Shown: positions 26,764 to 40,826 of the stretch, in pieces
Layout of the letters: each line of letters begins with the position of its first letter
Position numbering within the stretch: position 1 is the first letter of the stretch
Origin: a virus
Lineage: Duplodnaviria; Heunggongvirae; Uroviricota; Caudoviricetes
Strand: one strand, 5' to 3'
DNA length: 44,609 bases
Virus record (IMG/VR): IMGVR_UViG_3300045988_011059
Coordinates: 1-44,609 of that record
Notes under the pieces: generated by a model
The model's input: only the letters and a program-made list of their open reading frames with translations
Told to the model about the DNA's origin: nothing
Databases searched by the model: none
Translations under genes and position numbers: made by a program

Positions 26764-26901
26764 CTACTCTTCTGATAACTTCTCCAGTACATACGCCAGT
26801 TGCGCATTAGCGGCGTCTCGCTGTTGTCGTAGTCGTAGAACCTCTTCTTCGAGTTCTTTGATACGTTTTTGCAATGCCGGAATCGTGGATATGATGTTCA
26901 T
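26764..26901 (-). CDS. Hypothetical coiled-coil small protein (45 aa)
   Basis: Hand-translated; ATG overlaps the helicase stop (ATGA). Confidence 0.35.
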   Translation of the reverse strand: MNIISTIPALQKRIKELEEEVLRLRQQRDAANAQLAYVLEKLSEE

Positions 26902-28322
26902 TTCTTACTCCTTCTCTTCATATAATTAAGTAGTTCGTCCTGTACGGACCTTTTCTCGTCTGTACGCGCGGCGACAACTTCATCAAGAGTATCTCTGGCT
27001 ATTATTTGATAAATGAATACAGACCGTTTGTATCCAGATTGCATCTGCCTTACCGGGCCTATACGCTCGATAACCTGCAAATAATGTTCAAGGTTCCACC
27101 CCTGACTCATAAAGGCCATGTGGTGCCCGCCGTGTTGTAGCGACAGTCCGTGGCCTGCGGAGGCTGGGTGTATCAGGAGCATTGGTATTTCCCCGCGGTT
27201 CCACGCGTCCATCTGCTTATTACCCTTAGCGCCTTTAGAAAATGCCTGGGCCTGAGGGAATCGCTTAAGGATGCGCTCCAGTTCGTGCTTGAACTGATAC
27301 GCCACCAGTAACGGCGCACCCTGTAGCTCCTCAACAATTGACTCGAGTGCATCCAGTTTCGTGTCGTGCACTTTCTCCCAGTCTTTCGTTGCTTCACCAT
27401 CCGGCCCTGATACATACACGGCACCGGATGCGATCTGCAAGCACTTTGAGGTCTTCGCCGCGGCGTTAGCCGCTTCAACTTCTCCGCTCTCCAGTTCCGC
27501 GAATAACTTCTCCTCCATATCTATGTATGCCTGACGCGCTTTCTTCGGCAGGTCGATTTCAACCGGTACAATAATCGGCGCCTCGCAACCGAACCACTCG
27601 GCGGCGTCAATCGTGAGACTGATGTCCTTCATCTTCTGGTGAATTTCATTATCCGCACCAGGGCGGGCGTGGTATTCGCGCGCCATCGCCGACTTACCTT
27701 TCTGTACCGAGTTAAACCAGCGGTCCGTGAACGCTGTGTACGAAGAACCGAGGCGCTCACCCGCGTCGATAAACCAGTTCTGCCCCCACAAGTCTTTTAG
27801 TCCGTTTGGCGACGGCGTACCCGTCAGGTTGATGAAACGCTTAACCTTACCGAACGCAACCTTACTGAGCGCCTTCGCCCTCTTACTACCGCCTGAACGG
27901 CTGCGGAATGATTTCAGCTTCGTGCTTTCATCGGCGACAATAACCGTAAAAGGCCAGTCGTCTTTGCCGTAGTAGTCAATCAGCCACTCGATAACTTCGT
28001 AGTTGGTGCACACCACGTTAGCGTCAGACTCCAGCGCCGCGATGCGGCGCTTCTCTGAACCTGTTGCGTCTACAACATTCAGACACGGGAACCGCCATTT
28101 CTCTTGTTCTGCGGGCCACGTACCGGACGCAACTCGTAGCGGGGCAAGGATTAACACACGGTCGTCATCATTAAGTTGGCCGTTGCGGAACAGTCGGTTT
28201 AAAGCCCACAGTACGCTGCCAGTCTTCCCGGCACCCATGCTTGCCCATATGTTGCAGCGATGGTGCCGCAGCATGAACGAAGTCATGAGCTTCTGGTACT
28301 CTCGCCTTTGAAACTTAGACAT
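26898..28322 (-). CDS. SNF2-family helicase
   Basis: Walker A MGAGKTGS and DEAH-like DESTK motif; start at ATG 28322, not the track start. Confidence 0.8.
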   Translation of the reverse strand: MSKFQRREYQKLMTSFMLRHHRCNIWASMGAGKTGSVLWALNRLFRNGQLNDDDRVLILAPLRVASGTWPAEQEKWRFPCLNVVDATGSEKRRIAALESDANVVCTNYEVIEWLIDYYGKDDWPFTVIVADESTKLKSFRSRSGGSKRAKALSKVAFGKVKRFINLTGTPSPNGLKDLWGQNWFIDAGERLGSSYTAFTDRWFNSVQKGKSAMAREYHARPGADNEIHQKMKDISLTIDAAEWFGCEAPIIVPVEIDLPKKARQAYIDMEEKLFAELESGEVEAANAAAKTSKCLQIASGAVYVSGPDGEATKDWEKVHDTKLDALESIVEELQGAPLLVAYQFKHELERILKRFPQAQAFSKGAKGNKQMDAWNRGEIPMLLIHPASAGHGLSLQHGGHHMAFMSQGWNLEHYLQVIERIGPVRQMQSGYKRSVFIYQIIARDTLDEVVAARTDEKRSVQDELLNYMKRRSKK

Positions 28323-28998
28323 GATTAGCCTCGTAAACTGCTTTTGCGAAACCTCGCGGGGTGAGGCTGCGGATTGTTTTTGTTCTGGCGCTCTTGCCGC
28401 CCAGTTTAGCCCAGCCCGGATTATCTCCACTACCCGCGGCAACATCGGCAACGTCGGGCATAACAAACCCATTGCCCGCCCACAGGCACGTCTTTTTAAC
28501 ATAGGCATCTCGCGCTGGAATAACATCCGGAAACATTGGATGTGTGTCGTCTTCCGGTAGATAGCCGCCGTAATCGTGTGGGTCGAATACATAATCGGGC
28601 TTACGCCATAAAGATGAAAGAACGCTAACTGGGTTCTCAATCATATAAGGTACGTTGTACTTTTTAGCCAGACGCGCTGCCACTTTGCATGTAATCACGG
28701 CCTCTACCTGAAACGTTGGGTTCTTCTTGCGCTTAGCCTCGAAATGACGCGACCCACTAACGGCTAAATCTGTGCAAGGAGGGAACGCAAAAATAATATC
28801 CGGCGCGGCTTCGAAGTCGAATTTATTATCAATCCACGCGTTTATATAGTGGATGTTCTCGTGTTCAACCTTTGCACCCAATAGTGCGTAGTCGCCGTGG
28901 TCAGCGCCGTCGTAGTTGAAACAGTAGCAAGTATGGCCCGCTTCCGCCCACGGCTGGGCCATAAGGCCCGAACCGTCAAATAATGACCAGACAATCAT
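28315..28998 (-). CDS. DNA (cytosine-5)-methyltransferase-like protein, compact
   Basis: Motif I LFDGSG, motif IV PPCTD, motif VI ENP in canonical order; only 227 aa. Confidence 0.65.
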   Translation of the reverse strand: MIVWSLFDGSGLMAQPWAEAGHTCYCFNYDGADHGDYALLGAKVEHENIHYINAWIDNKFDFEAAPDIIFAFPPCTDLAVSGSRHFEAKRKKNPTFQVEAVITCKVAARLAKKYNVPYMIENPVSVLSSLWRKPDYVFDPHDYGGYLPEDDTHPMFPDVIPARDAYVKKTCLWAGNGFVMPDVADVAAGSGDNPGWAKLGGKSARTKTIRSLTPRGFAKAVYEANHV

Positions 28999-29186
28999 TT
29001 CAACACCAGAACTAACTCTTTACGCCCGAACGCCGTAATATTGCCGGTTACATCTTCGATAACCAGTTTACCGTTCGACTCGACGTACACCGTATCAACG
29101 GCAACAGGACGACGGGTCTTAACGTTGAAAATCATGTCGCCCGGTACGATGTCACGTGCTGGTTTGCGGTCATATTCGTGTTTCAT
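28995..29186 (-). CDS. Hypothetical protein (63 aa)
   Basis: ORF track; ATGA coupling. Confidence 0.5.
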   Translation of the reverse strand: MKHEYDRKPARDIVPGDMIFNVKTRRPVAVDTVYVESNGKLVIEDVTGNITAFGRKELVLVLK

Positions 29187-29225: not shown

Positions 29226-29480
29226 TTAGTTAGATAATTCTGCTTGAACTTGCTTAATAAGTTCCCCAGCCGTTGTGAAGTCTACCGACAGCCCTTTAGC
29301 GACGTCTTCTGCCAGCACTTTGCGGCCAACTGACCCGAAACCCAGGATACGGTTTACTTCCGAAACCTTCATAGACCATGAGTAATTAACTGACGCCCCT
29401 GTGTATTTACCGATACGAACAGATGAGTCGATTGAACCAATAATCATAGTGTTTACTGACAGTTGAAGTTCGATAGCCAT
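29226..29480 (-). CDS. Hypothetical protein (84 aa)
   Basis: ORF track. Confidence 0.5.
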   Translation of the reverse strand: MAIELQLSVNTMIIGSIDSSVRIGKYTGASVNYSWSMKVSEVNRILGFGSVGRKVLAEDVAKGLSVDFTTAGELIKQVQAELSN

Positions 29481-32998: not shown

Positions 32999-33027
32999 AC
33001 TATAATAGCTAACTATTCAGGTGTCAA
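32999..33027 (-). promoter_or_regulatory. Sigma70-like promoter TTGACA-N17-TATAGT (minus strand)
   Basis: Reverse complement TTGACACCTGAATAGTTAGCTATTATAGTT; spacer carries the GAATAGT motif. Confidence 0.55.
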
Positions 33028-33031
33028 CACT

Positions 33032-33205
33032 TTATTTAAGTTTCTTCGGAACTACCTTATAAATATAGGGCTGCACCGCCTCATGCTTCGAGTTCTTCTC
33101 TTCTGCAATTTTGTCGGCGTCGGCGCGTTTAGCGTGAACAGAAACAATATCAAGTTCTTGAATAGAATATCGGCGGTGATACCGCGTGAGAATATAAACC
33201 ATCAT
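33032..33205 (-). CDS. Hypothetical protein (57 aa)
   Basis: ORF track frame from ATG 33205 (ATGA overlap with the exonuclease stop). Confidence 0.45.
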   Translation of the reverse strand: MMVYILTRYHRRYSIQELDIVSVHAKRADADKIAEEKNSKHEAVQPYIYKVVPKKLK

Positions 33206-34443
33206 TCCAAATCCTCCTCTGTTACCTGATTCCACTCAGGACGCTTGTCGTCCGCCGTTGCAACACATGGTGCGCCAGGCTTACGGGTAATGAAGTCTTT
33301 TAGCTCCTCCTCCGGTATGACTTTAACCGCTTCGGTAGGTGACATGAGCACGTCTTTAGTCAGCTTGTAGCCGTATTTCTCGTATACCGCCTCAGCATCC
33401 TTCCACGCACGATTGCCCATCTTACCTTCAACCAGCTTGTACCCCGGCACTTTCTTACCGGAATGCAACGCGGCGGACATCGCTTTCTCGACCTTGTCGA
33501 TGTGCTGGCGCAACAATGGCAACTTCTCATACTCAGCTACGAGTTGCTCTGGTGTCAGTTCCAGCGCAAAGTCGTCTTCAAGTTCTTCCGCCAGCACCGC
33601 GTTAACGGTTTTTGTACGCGCGGCACACTGTTCCGAGAACCGGCACCACTGACAACCGTCTACTGACGGCTTGAAGTCAGATGCTTTCAGGTTCTTCTTG
33701 CCTCGGTAATACGCGTCAAGAGCTAACAGTGCGCGTTTCTGTGCAAACTTAGCGAACAGTTCCAGACCTTCAACCGAGATGTCCCACTCCGACGCACCGC
33801 CCGCGTACGGCTGAAAGATGACCAGGCGAACAACTGTGATGTTATAACGTCTCTTGAGTCGGCGATAAACACCGAGAGCGTAAAGCATAAGCTGCTTGTT
33901 TTCTTTCGCTTCAACACGATGCCGTCCAGTTTTAAGGTCGCCAATAATGAGCATGTGCTCGTCGGTGTTCGCCAGTTCCTGAACGGCAACAAGGTCGGCG
34001 GTTCCGAATGTCTCAACGCCTTCGTAGCCTGGATGCAATACCTCAGTAAGATTGACACGCATCTCGAGTTTGGCGTAAGTCGCTACATCGATAACAGCTT
34101 TGCAGTAGTCTGTGTACTTGCGCACCTGCTCAATCATGTCAGCCGTAATCAGTACCGCGCATTTCATCGGGCTGATTAGCGCCTTAATCTGGCCTTTACC
34201 CTCGTCCAGCACGTAAGCACCGACTTCACGCTCTAATGGTAGCGCAGTGCCGCGGATATAGGCGTTGAGATGTACCTCAGCTATGGTGTGCATAGCCGTA
34301 CCTAATACCGCGGCTTTACCGGACGTGTTAGGAATATCTTTTTCACAGGCCAGAGAAGCCGGGCAGGTTAACCACTTTTTAGCGCCTGACGGTGATAGTA
34401 ATGCGTGTACATCGTTATTGCCACCGCGTTCTTTTAGAATCAT
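33202..34443 (-). CDS. PD-(D/E)XK exonuclease with Cys4 cluster (Cas4/RecB-like)
   Basis: GTADLVAV...IGDLKTG...QLMLYALG nuclease core; N-terminal Cys and C-terminal CQWC...C cluster; start at ATG 34443. Confidence 0.75.
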   Translation of the reverse strand: MILKERGGNNDVHALLSPSGAKKWLTCPASLACEKDIPNTSGKAAVLGTAMHTIAEVHLNAYIRGTALPLEREVGAYVLDEGKGQIKALISPMKCAVLITADMIEQVRKYTDYCKAVIDVATYAKLEMRVNLTEVLHPGYEGVETFGTADLVAVQELANTDEHMLIIGDLKTGRHRVEAKENKQLMLYALGVYRRLKRRYNITVVRLVIFQPYAGGASEWDISVEGLELFAKFAQKRALLALDAYYRGKKNLKASDFKPSVDGCQWCRFSEQCAARTKTVNAVLAEELEDDFALELTPEQLVAEYEKLPLLRQHIDKVEKAMSAALHSGKKVPGYKLVEGKMGNRAWKDAEAVYEKYGYKLTKDVLMSPTEAVKVIPEEELKDFITRKPGAPCVATADDKRPEWNQVTEEDLE

Positions 34444-39942: not shown

Positions 39943-40199
39943 TGAATAATACTGAACTGAAAACAGTAGCGGAATATAACCGTAAAATACGGGTCATGCG
40001 TCGGGGTGCGGGGCTGGAGCAGTTCTATAACATGTGGCGCATTGCGACGCGCGACCCTGAGTTTCTTCAGACAGGTTATTATTCCATTAAAGGCATTATC
40101 CCGATTCGTGCACGTAAGGATTATGGTTGGGTTCGTGAGACCCCTAATCTTTTGTGGTGCTGGTATTGTGGTGAATTCTGGGTAAAGGTTAAGGACTAA
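39942..40199 (+). CDS. Hypothetical protein (85 aa)
   Basis: ORF track frame from ATG 39942 (TAATG overlap). Confidence 0.5.
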   Translation: MNNTELKTVAEYNRKIRVMRRGAGLEQFYNMWRIATRDPEFLQTGYYSIKGIIPIRARKDYGWVRETPNLLWCWYCGEFWVKVKD

Positions 40200-40202
40200 G
40201 TT

Positions 40203-40346
40203 ATGAGAGAAGCATTTGAACGGTGGGCCGTCGTCGAGGGTCTGCCGGTTAACAAGGGTTCTAAGAAAGAGTACCTTAACGTTAAGACACGTCTCGCGTG
40301 GCGGGCGTGGAAAGCTGGTGTGCAATATGCGATGAATACGAGGTGA
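40203..40346 (+). CDS. Hypothetical small protein (47 aa)
   Basis: Hand-translated; AAGGA RBS. Confidence 0.35.
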   Translation: MREAFERWAVVEGLPVNKGSKKEYLNVKTRLAWRAWKAGVQYAMNTR

Positions 40347-40349
40347 GAT

Positions 40350-40655
40350 ATGAGCGAAGAACTTAAAGCATTTTATAAAGCCTACGCTGCGTGGCTCGAT
40401 GCTGGTGCGGTTAACAATGGCGTATTCACATGTTGCACCGGACTATGTTTCGCATTGCATAAGTGGGCAGGTGATAAAGGTTACAACCTCCGCGCTCTGC
40501 GCCTGGAGTTGAAAGCACAGTTTACCAACGCTGGGTTAGATTCGGGCTACCCGTTTAACCACGGCGAACCTAACTATGACGTCGAGTGCGATGATGGAAC
40601 AATCCACCTAAATCCGGCACGCATCGCCTGGGTACGTAAACACGCGACTGATTGA
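40350..40655 (+). CDS. Hypothetical protein (101 aa)
   Basis: ORF track; GAGGTGA RBS. Confidence 0.55.
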   Translation: MSEELKAFYKAYAAWLDAGAVNNGVFTCCTGLCFALHKWAGDKGYNLRALRLELKAQFTNAGLDSGYPFNHGEPNYDVECDDGTIHLNPARIAWVRKHATD

Positions 40656-40725
40656 TACGTATAACACACTGGATGCCGTTACCCGAGCCGCTGGAAGTGT
40701 GATGTTCAATAGTTTGGGATTTTAC

Positions 40726-40763
40726 TGAGTGACTTACGCTGCTACACAGCAGCGTATCATTTT
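40726..40763 (+). terminator. Rho-independent terminator
   Basis: ACGCTGCT-ACAC-AGCAGCGT hairpin followed by a T-rich run. Confidence 0.6.
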
Positions 40764-40826
40764 TCTCATTTTTGTTCTATTTCACCAAACGCAACAATCG
40801 AAGAGACTATTGCAGGAGATGCAACA

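Follow-up and report, generated by a model that had tools for sequence, protein, structure and literature searches.

A predicted compact Dcm-like DNA cytosine-C5 methyltransferase in a Jersey/Kagunavirus-like phage

Can a protein of only 227 amino acids (aa) that carries the motifs of a cytosine-C5 methyltransferase be a working DNA-modifying enzyme and, if so, what part of so short a protein could recognize its target? The question is raised by a gene in a 44,609-nucleotide stretch of viral DNA (Caudoviricetes; positions 1 to 44,609 of IMG/VR record IMGVR_UViG_3300045988_011059), the whole of which is referred to here as the window. The gene is read on the minus strand at 28998..28315, from an ATG start (28998) to a TAA stop (28317..28315), and we annotate it as a coding sequence (28315..28998, minus strand) for a compact, Dcm-like DNA cytosine-C5 methyltransferase of 227 aa. 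The original prediction, made from the sequence, had noted the motifs LFDGSG, PPCTD and ENP in canonical order in this open reading frame (ORF), and all three are present in that order. The explanation that we favor, and consider very probable on the combined grounds of sequence comparison, a structural model and a characterized homolog, is that the gene encodes a functional S-adenosylmethionine (SAM)-dependent DNA cytosine-C5 methyltransferase that belongs to a compact phage family of Dcm-like proteins (phrog_757).

A widespread family with a characterized member

Homologs of the window protein were detected by tblastn in 1,528 phage records, with a query coverage of at least 80% in 1,474; their annotation was mostly cytosine methylase, and the hosts of the phages include Escherichia, Klebsiella, Salmonella, Shigella, Campylobacter, Vibrio and Arthrobacter. 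A word-indexed protein search matched 6,636 proteins, and the hits of an exhaustive profile search (E<=1e-3) formed 2,001 clusters at 50% identity. Most full-length family representatives are 205-260 aa in length, a range that includes the 227 aa of the window protein. The match to phrog_757 ("DNA methyltransferase") was 5e-86 and extended over residues 1-226. Conservation was assessed in a set of 77 diverse representatives whose identity to the window protein is 35-59%. Invariant in that set are C75, E121, P123, P140, Y166, W173 and P181, and F72, P73, N122, D164, K168, T170, R210, S211, P214 and G216 are at least 90% conserved; G9, S10 and G11 are invariant among close homologs. The observation is, as judged from these sequences, far beyond chance, because homologs are carried by so many phage records (1,528) and because Cys75, Glu121 and Pro123 are invariant.

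The conserved residues map onto recognizable methyltransferase motifs. Motif I (LFDGSG, residues 6-11; 28966..28983, minus strand) would form the SAM-binding loop after strand 1 and is in hhalign register with LFAGIGG of Dcm, motif IV (FPPCTD, residues 72-77; 28768..28785, minus strand) contains the predicted catalytic Cys75 and aligns with PCQ of Dcm, and motif VI (ENP, residues 121-123; 28630..28638, minus strand) aligns with ENV of Dcm. Within motif IV, PPCTD corresponds to residues 73-77. The residue after the Cys is Thr, not Gln, throughout the family, for which the consensus around the catalytic Cys is FPPCTDLAVSG, and since both this Thr and the compact size recur family-wide they appear to be family traits rather than quirks of the window copy.

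The compact C5 domain was also identified as a part of longer proteins. In P0254 (563 aa) it is fused to a D12 Dam-like adenine methyltransferase (D12, residues 303-546), a fusion that supports a role of the compact domain in DNA methylation, and in P0262 (348 aa) it is fused to an HNH_2 endonuclease domain. The BFVD entry A0A6J5SE15 (1397 aa, "Helicase/UvrB, N-terminal") likewise contains the compact C5 domain, which echoes the linkage of methylase and helicase seen in the window.

The gene has close relatives in the Guernseyvirinae. The methylase region is 86-91% identical at the nucleotide level to phages of this group (Kagunavirus, Jerseyvirus), and by this comparison the window is from a Jersey/Kagunavirus-like phage. 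The window methylase is 95% identical to Jersey gp37, which is annotated as "C-5 cytosine-specific DNA methylase" and has the same gene position and the same 8-nucleotide (nt) overlap with the helicase gene as in the window; the arrangement in phage hz69 is likewise the same. Guernseyvirinae orthologs (Jersey, hz69, SZH-1, LP31 and others), designated "DNA cytosine methyltransferase", are 85-99% identical to the window protein, and in these phages, as in the window, the methylase sits between a 63-aa ORF and an SNF2 helicase. The gene is already known in the sense that its relatives routinely bear the annotation Dcm or DNA cytosine methyltransferase.

Functional information on the family derives from a study of the retron Ec86 (10.1101/2023.08.16.553469, cited as Cell Rep 2024;43:114857 in PMC13276650) and its targeting of phage K42, which shares 95.4% genome identity with the BASEL phage KarlJaspers. 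In that study, K42 escaped the retron through mutations that disrupted, or were just upstream of, a 711-bp dcm gene, expression of the K42 Dcm was toxic only when the retron was present, and the retron's multicopy single-stranded DNA (msDNA) gained 5-methylcytosine (5mC) with K42 Dcm, as determined by LC-MS (liquid chromatography coupled to mass spectrometry). A quadruple mutant of the enzyme, C82A/E128A/K175A/K176A, in which the four substitutions were made together and not singly, was inactive, and 34 of 35 retron-sensitive phages were found to encode a K42-type Dcm.

The protein bas06_0055 (QXV82308.1) of KarlJaspers (Bas06) is encoded by a 711-bp gene and is annotated as a "Dcm-like C5 cytosine methyltransferase"; its full-length alignment with the window protein has 63% identity (E 8e-108). 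Residues C82, E128, K175 and K176 of the K42/KarlJaspers enzyme align with C75, E121, K168 and K169 of the window protein. That level of identity together with the four aligned residues places the window protein in a family with a characterized member, and by analogy with the K42 homolog the window protein would be expected to form 5mC. The KarlJaspers Dcm has the same architecture as the window protein and the same type of loop in its C-terminal region (type A, DNPGWAK; described below), and it differs in being 236 aa rather than 227 aa long, with an insertion of 6-7 aa before motif IV. The KarlJaspers genome is that of a member of the Drexlerviridae, and two small genes lie between its dcm and helicase genes, as opposed to the 8-nt overlap in the window. 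KarlJaspers (MZ501090) also encodes a Dam-like adenine methyltransferase in addition to the compact Dcm-like enzyme (33019-33720 and 40087-40797, respectively), unlike the Guernseyvirinae relatives that were examined, which have the Dcm-like enzyme only. The protein P0083, which has the same residue numbering, was considered as the K42 Dcm and rejected, as it is a protein of a Salmonella phage (Sasha-like); a retron paper in PLoS Biology was set aside as not relevant, since it concerns an adenine methyltransferase.

An AlphaFold2 model of the window protein built on 66 homologs had a mean predicted local distance difference test score (pLDDT) of 89.8 and a predicted template modeling score of 0.89. 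In the fold search, the top 16 matches were C5-methyltransferases only, with DNMT3B the best, and the top 47 Foldseek matches were to DNMT3A/B/C, MET1 and DNMT1; in a fold search of viral models, the close matches were annotated cytosine methylases. The model has the catalytic-domain fold of the C5-methyltransferases. A non-methyltransferase protein of a Rossmann family, the assignment that the original prediction had named as the one that would count against it, was rejected since C5-methyltransferases top the fold ranking, and the identification as a C5-methyltransferase is upheld both by those top 16 matches and by the 63%-identical homolog family for which formation of 5mC has been reported. 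Sequence identity to the catalytic domains of DNMT3A and DNMT3B is only 12-19%. The DNMT3 domain is also larger (~280 aa), has a motif X and acts as an oligomer with DNMT3L, whereas the window protein has 227 aa and no motif X, and the sequences hold no evidence of common descent with DNMT3 beyond the superfamily level.

These results also bear on a different function for the protein, that of a DNMT2-like RNA (tRNA) m5C methyltransferase or of a DNA-binding protein that has no catalytic activity and assists the neighboring helicase. The tight linkage of the gene to that of the helicase would suit such a function, as would the existence of fusions of the domain to helicase-like proteins. Nevertheless, DNA methyltransferases outscore DNMT2 in the fold search, the catalytic Cys and Glu are invariant in the 77 representatives, the homolog methylates msDNA only when its four-residue active-site set is intact, and a fusion of the domain to a DNA adenine methyltransferase exists. 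We consequently give hardly any credence to a function in RNA methylation or as an inactive protein, relative to that of an active DNA methyltransferase.

Short length and the candidate recognition cassette

To account for the length of the protein, E. coli Dcm and nine canonical phage C5-methyltransferases were used as the comparison set. An hhalign comparison to E. coli Dcm alone was too weak for use, and the canonical enzymes were instead combined as a ten-sequence profile. In the profile-profile hhalign alignment, motifs I, IV and VI were in register (E 0.0024, query 1-129) and the alignment had no further extension. The spacing from motif VIII to motif IX is 37 aa in the window protein versus 94-148 aa in the ten canonical enzymes, and that from motif IX to the C-terminus is 18 aa versus 51-73 aa, a segment which in the canonical enzymes includes the sequence GN[SA]V. 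Because both spacings are short relative to those of canonical enzymes, the ~100 missing aa are, on these alignments, most of the target-recognition domain (TRD) and the motif X tail. The original prediction had held the protein to be too short for a typical C5-methyltransferase with a TRD, and its compactness is explained by the 37-aa recognition region and the missing motif X.

The comparison also delimits what the protein shares with its namesake. Enzymes of the E. coli Dcm / M.EcoRII type (PF00145) have motifs I, IV and VI in register with those of the window protein, and the RxLTPR of their motif IX aligns weakly with the one here, but E. coli Dcm is 472 aa long, with 121 aa separating motif VIII from motif IX and with GNSV as motif X, none of which are features of the window protein. 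In the hhalign comparison, nothing in the window protein corresponds to the 121-aa TRD of Dcm, and orthology with E. coli Dcm was rejected, as only motifs I-VI and, weakly, IX align and there is neither a shared TRD nor a motif X. Since the window protein is without a Dcm-like TRD, the name "Dcm" does not imply a specificity for CCWGG.

A profile alignment to check for motifs VIII to X, as the original prediction had proposed, was successful in part: motif IX was aligned weakly, the alignment stopped short of the motif VIII region, and motif X was absent. We putatively assign a modified motif VIII to residues 142-175 (28474..28575, minus strand), based on its pattern and on the equivalence with K175/K176 of K42. 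It comprises DYGG, a conserved insert of ~20 aa (YLPEDDTHPMFPDVIPARDAY) and the strand KKTCLWAG. The canonical QxRxR was searched for in the window protein and is absent, and K168 and K169 occupy the place of its arginines. In the AlphaFold2 model the motif VIII stretch has pLDDT values of 91-97, with a strand at residues 170-175. A candidate motif IX (RSLTPRG, residues 210-216; 28351..28371, minus strand) aligns with RRLTPRE of Dcm at an hhalign E of 0.015, which is weak but in register, with R, L, T, P and R identical and Gly in place of Glu. A C-terminal helix at residues 215-225 follows, and the protein ends 18 aa past the start of motif IX with no GN[SA]V. Motif X normally contributes to the cofactor pocket.

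Between motifs VIII and IX is a 31-aa loop, or "mini-TRD" (residues 179-209; 28372..28464, minus strand), which in the window protein is of a type that we designate A (..GDNPGWAKLGGKS..) and whose residues 191-200 are the least confident part of the model (pLDDT 64). In a survey of 122 close homologs, the loop between the motif VIII strand and motif IX was almost always exactly 31 aa and occurred as two alleles. Type A, ..(D/N)NPGW(A/Q/K)KLGGKS.., was present in 67 of the 122 homologs, including the window protein and that of KarlJaspers, and type B, ..GYSxQ(H/Y)xKLGGKS.., in the other 55. The positions outside the loop that best predict the loop type are 167 (mutual information 0.93 of 0.99 bits), 161 (0.85) and 159 (0.78), all of which are inside the motif VIII insert. 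Loop and insert can thus be described as a cassette of two segments, 28492-28536 (residues 155-169) and 28372-28464 (residues 179-209). Some Guernseyvirinae orthologs, P0035-P0037, have the type-B cassette, unlike the type-A window protein. Because these proteins are 91-93% identical to the window protein outside the cassette segments yet 44% identical within them, the sequences indicate that the cassette has been exchanged within the Guernseyvirinae.

The co-variation of loop and insert is the pattern expected of a specificity determinant, although the sequences in which it was observed are related by descent. The loop and the motif VIII insert, which presumably are in spatial contact with each other, probably form a DNA-recognition module. 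The original prediction that the protein has no obvious TRD was therefore correct with regard to a classical TRD and overstated in that the conserved 31-aa loop and the ~20-aa motif VIII insert form a co-varying module. A more far-reaching proposal, suggested by the same alignments and one that we advance tentatively and regard as rather doubtful, is that the family represents a minimal natural C5-methyltransferase that has lost the classical TRD and motif X, in which a swappable cassette of insert and loop would set specificity, and in which types A and B would recognize different, possibly short, targets other than CCWGG.

Chemistry, target sequence and role

In the mechanism that we envisage for the favored explanation, Cys75 of motif IV would attack C6 of a flipped-out cytosine, Glu121 of motif VI would hold N3/N4 of that cytosine, Lys168 and Lys169 would stand in for the motif VIII arginines, and the methyl group would be passed from SAM to C5 of the cytosine. 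DNA recognition would be via the 31-aa loop and the family-specific motif VIII insert of ~20 aa. The likely benefit to the phage would be that its replicating DNA is shielded from cytosine-sensitive restriction, and a side effect would be detection of the enzyme by retron Ec86 (Retron-Eco1), because the msDNA of the retron becomes methylated. The activity of the window protein itself, its recognition mechanism, its target sequence and its role in anti-restriction are all properties that we infer.

An alternative with regard to the chemistry is that a group other than methyl is transferred, for instance carboxymethyl from carboxy-SAM (Cx-SAM), as by the phage enzyme CmoX, with host CmoA as the supplier of Cx-SAM. 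The absence of motif X gives this idea some attraction, since the cofactor pocket would be atypical; the Asn position of motif X decides the use of Cx-SAM in CmoX and in M.MpeI N374K, and E. coli CmoA can supply Cx-SAM (PMC12783734). CmoX is defined by an SPPC motif, by Arg350, which is at the motif X Asn position, and by an associated phage CmoA (PMC12783734; PDB 8yf3). The window protein has FPPC at motif IV and not the CmoX-defining SPPC, it has no motif X region, and in the related genome hz69 neither a CmoA nor an amide-ligase gene is annotated, and on these grounds membership in CmoX was rejected. In addition, the CmoX structure (8yf3) scores no better in the fold search than ordinary methyltransferases, and the product found by LC-MS for the K42 homolog was 5mC. 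The suggestion in the original prediction that the enzyme might be repurposed for another base modification is not borne out by that 5mC result or by the missing CmoX signature, and we consider transfer of a group other than methyl to be very improbable compared with ordinary C5 methylation.

A refinement of the favored explanation that is harder to decide upon is that the chemistry is the same but that the target is not CCWGG and is instead a short or degenerate motif of 2-4 bp, with loop alleles A and B perhaps specifying different targets. The CCWGG specificity of the K42 enzyme, the one published claim of this kind, was taken from E. coli Dcm by analogy and name (10.1101/2023.08.16.553469), and in the dcm+ strain MG1655 little 5mC was present in the msDNA before expression of the phage enzyme (10.1101/2023.08.16.553469), an observation that is in keeping with a target other than CCWGG. 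Other features in its favor are the 37 aa between motifs VIII and IX versus 94-148 aa, with no detectable similarity to the TRD of Dcm; the best structural match, which is to DNMT3B/3A, CpG recognizers with a small TRD; and the loop alleles, which vary together with the insert in motif VIII and have been exchanged between proteins whose remaining sequence is 91-93% identical. Conversely, retron defense was lost when the CC in the CCTGG of the msDNA stem was altered (10.1101/2023.08.16.553469), and CCWGG is kept in a genome that avoids many other palindromes. On balance we judge a target other than CCWGG to have a substantial chance of being correct, although somewhat less than an even one.

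The site composition of the window is relevant to this issue. CCWGG is not strongly avoided, with 86 occurrences observed versus 92-117 expected, and its retention is compatible with, but is no proof of, protection at CCWGG. Strong avoidance was apparent for GATC (12 observed versus ~154 expected), AAGCTT (0 versus 10) and GGTACC (1 versus 10), as well as for GGCGCC (2 versus 17) and CAGCTG (2 versus 13). CTAG, with 20 occurrences in the window (1-44609) versus 69 expected, was likewise strongly avoided, and CCWGG and CCGG were near expectation. There is no Dam-like methylase annotated in the related genome hz69, and for that reason avoidance of GATC may substitute for Dam protection.

Several points weigh against the favored explanation and need to be considered alongside the evidence for it. 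The window protein scored 19.4 bits on PF00145, short of the gathering cut-off (22), with a match that covered residues 3-102 only; among the 77 family members PF00145 was matched at E<=0.01 in only three. An NCBIfam search of the window protein had no match, and sequence and profile searches of the PDB produced chance matches only, so that no solved structure of the family is detectable by sequence. The protein lacks motif X, and its motif VIII departs from the canonical form. A CCWGG enzyme would look redundant in the usual hosts, which have a Dcm of their own. The BASEL study found no simple link of phage methyltransferase genes to restriction resistance. The data for K42 are from over-expression, with a specificity that was assumed and not mapped, and the literature that was searched contained no measurement on the window protein or on any Guernseyvirinae phage. 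Searches of the literature yielded no relevant methylome data and no restriction digests for BASEL phages or for those of the Jersey-like and T1-like groups, and searches on C5-methyltransferases that lack a TRD were likewise without a relevant result.

Gene neighborhood and implications

Downstream of the methylase gene is the gene for an SNF2-related helicase of 474 aa (26898..28322, minus strand; PF00176, 4e-13), annotated as a DNA helicase in relatives. The 8-nt overlap with the start of that gene that had been predicted is confirmed by direct reading of the sequence: it consists of ATGTCTAA (28315..28322, minus strand), and an identical overlap is annotated in Jersey and hz69. The helicase ATG (28322..28320) is within ATGTCTAA, and the methylase stop falls inside the helicase start. 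On the minus strand the methylase gene ends in ...GAGGCTAATCATGTCTAAG, and a GAGG resembling a Shine-Dalgarno sequence is positioned 6 nt 5' of the helicase ATG. At its other end, the methylase gene shares ATGA, containing its own ATG, with the stop of the upstream 63-aa ORF (28995..29186, minus strand), which is a conserved hypothetical in Jersey (gp38) and hz69. Further upstream are genes for a VRR-NUC protein, a family A DNA polymerase and an Enc34-type single-stranded DNA-binding protein. The methylase is within this replication module, and because both its start and its stop overlap neighboring genes it would probably be co-produced with the VRR-NUC nuclease, the polymerase and the SNF2 helicase.

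The 63-aa ORF is one of two small conserved ORFs between the VRR-NUC gene and the methylase, the other being of 84 aa (29226-29480, minus strand), and a Pfam search had no match for either. On the far side of the helicase, a 45-aa ORF (26764-26901, minus strand) with a coiled-coil-like sequence overlaps the helicase stop; its score to DUF1192 was 23.1 bits, which is sub-threshold (cut-off 25.5). In phage Jersey its place is taken by a gene for an HNH endonuclease plus another small hypothetical ORF, which makes the region just downstream of the helicase a variable site.

Taken as a whole, the sequence comparisons and the analogy with K42 make the gene almost certainly that of a real, conserved and active DNA C5-methyltransferase from an annotated and partly characterized phage family. 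The window protein represents a phage methyltransferase that is very common, and it adds no new kind of system. What the assignment does provide is a prediction for the phage. Activation of retron Ec86 has been reported for the K42 Dcm, and the window protein has the same type-A loop; by analogy, this Jersey/Kagunavirus-like phage is predicted to make 5mC and could be sensed by the retron, which bears on the prediction of its host range. Retron Ec86 (Retron-Eco1) is native to E. coli BL21(DE3).

The residual interest of the gene is in its target sequence and in the two-allele recognition cassette. The label "Dcm" hides the question of which sequence is targeted by this family of 210-260 aa proteins. 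The family shows how far a C5-methyltransferase may be trimmed, with no large TRD and no motif X, and its two-allele cassette could expose a minimal specificity determinant, which may be of interest to enzyme engineers.

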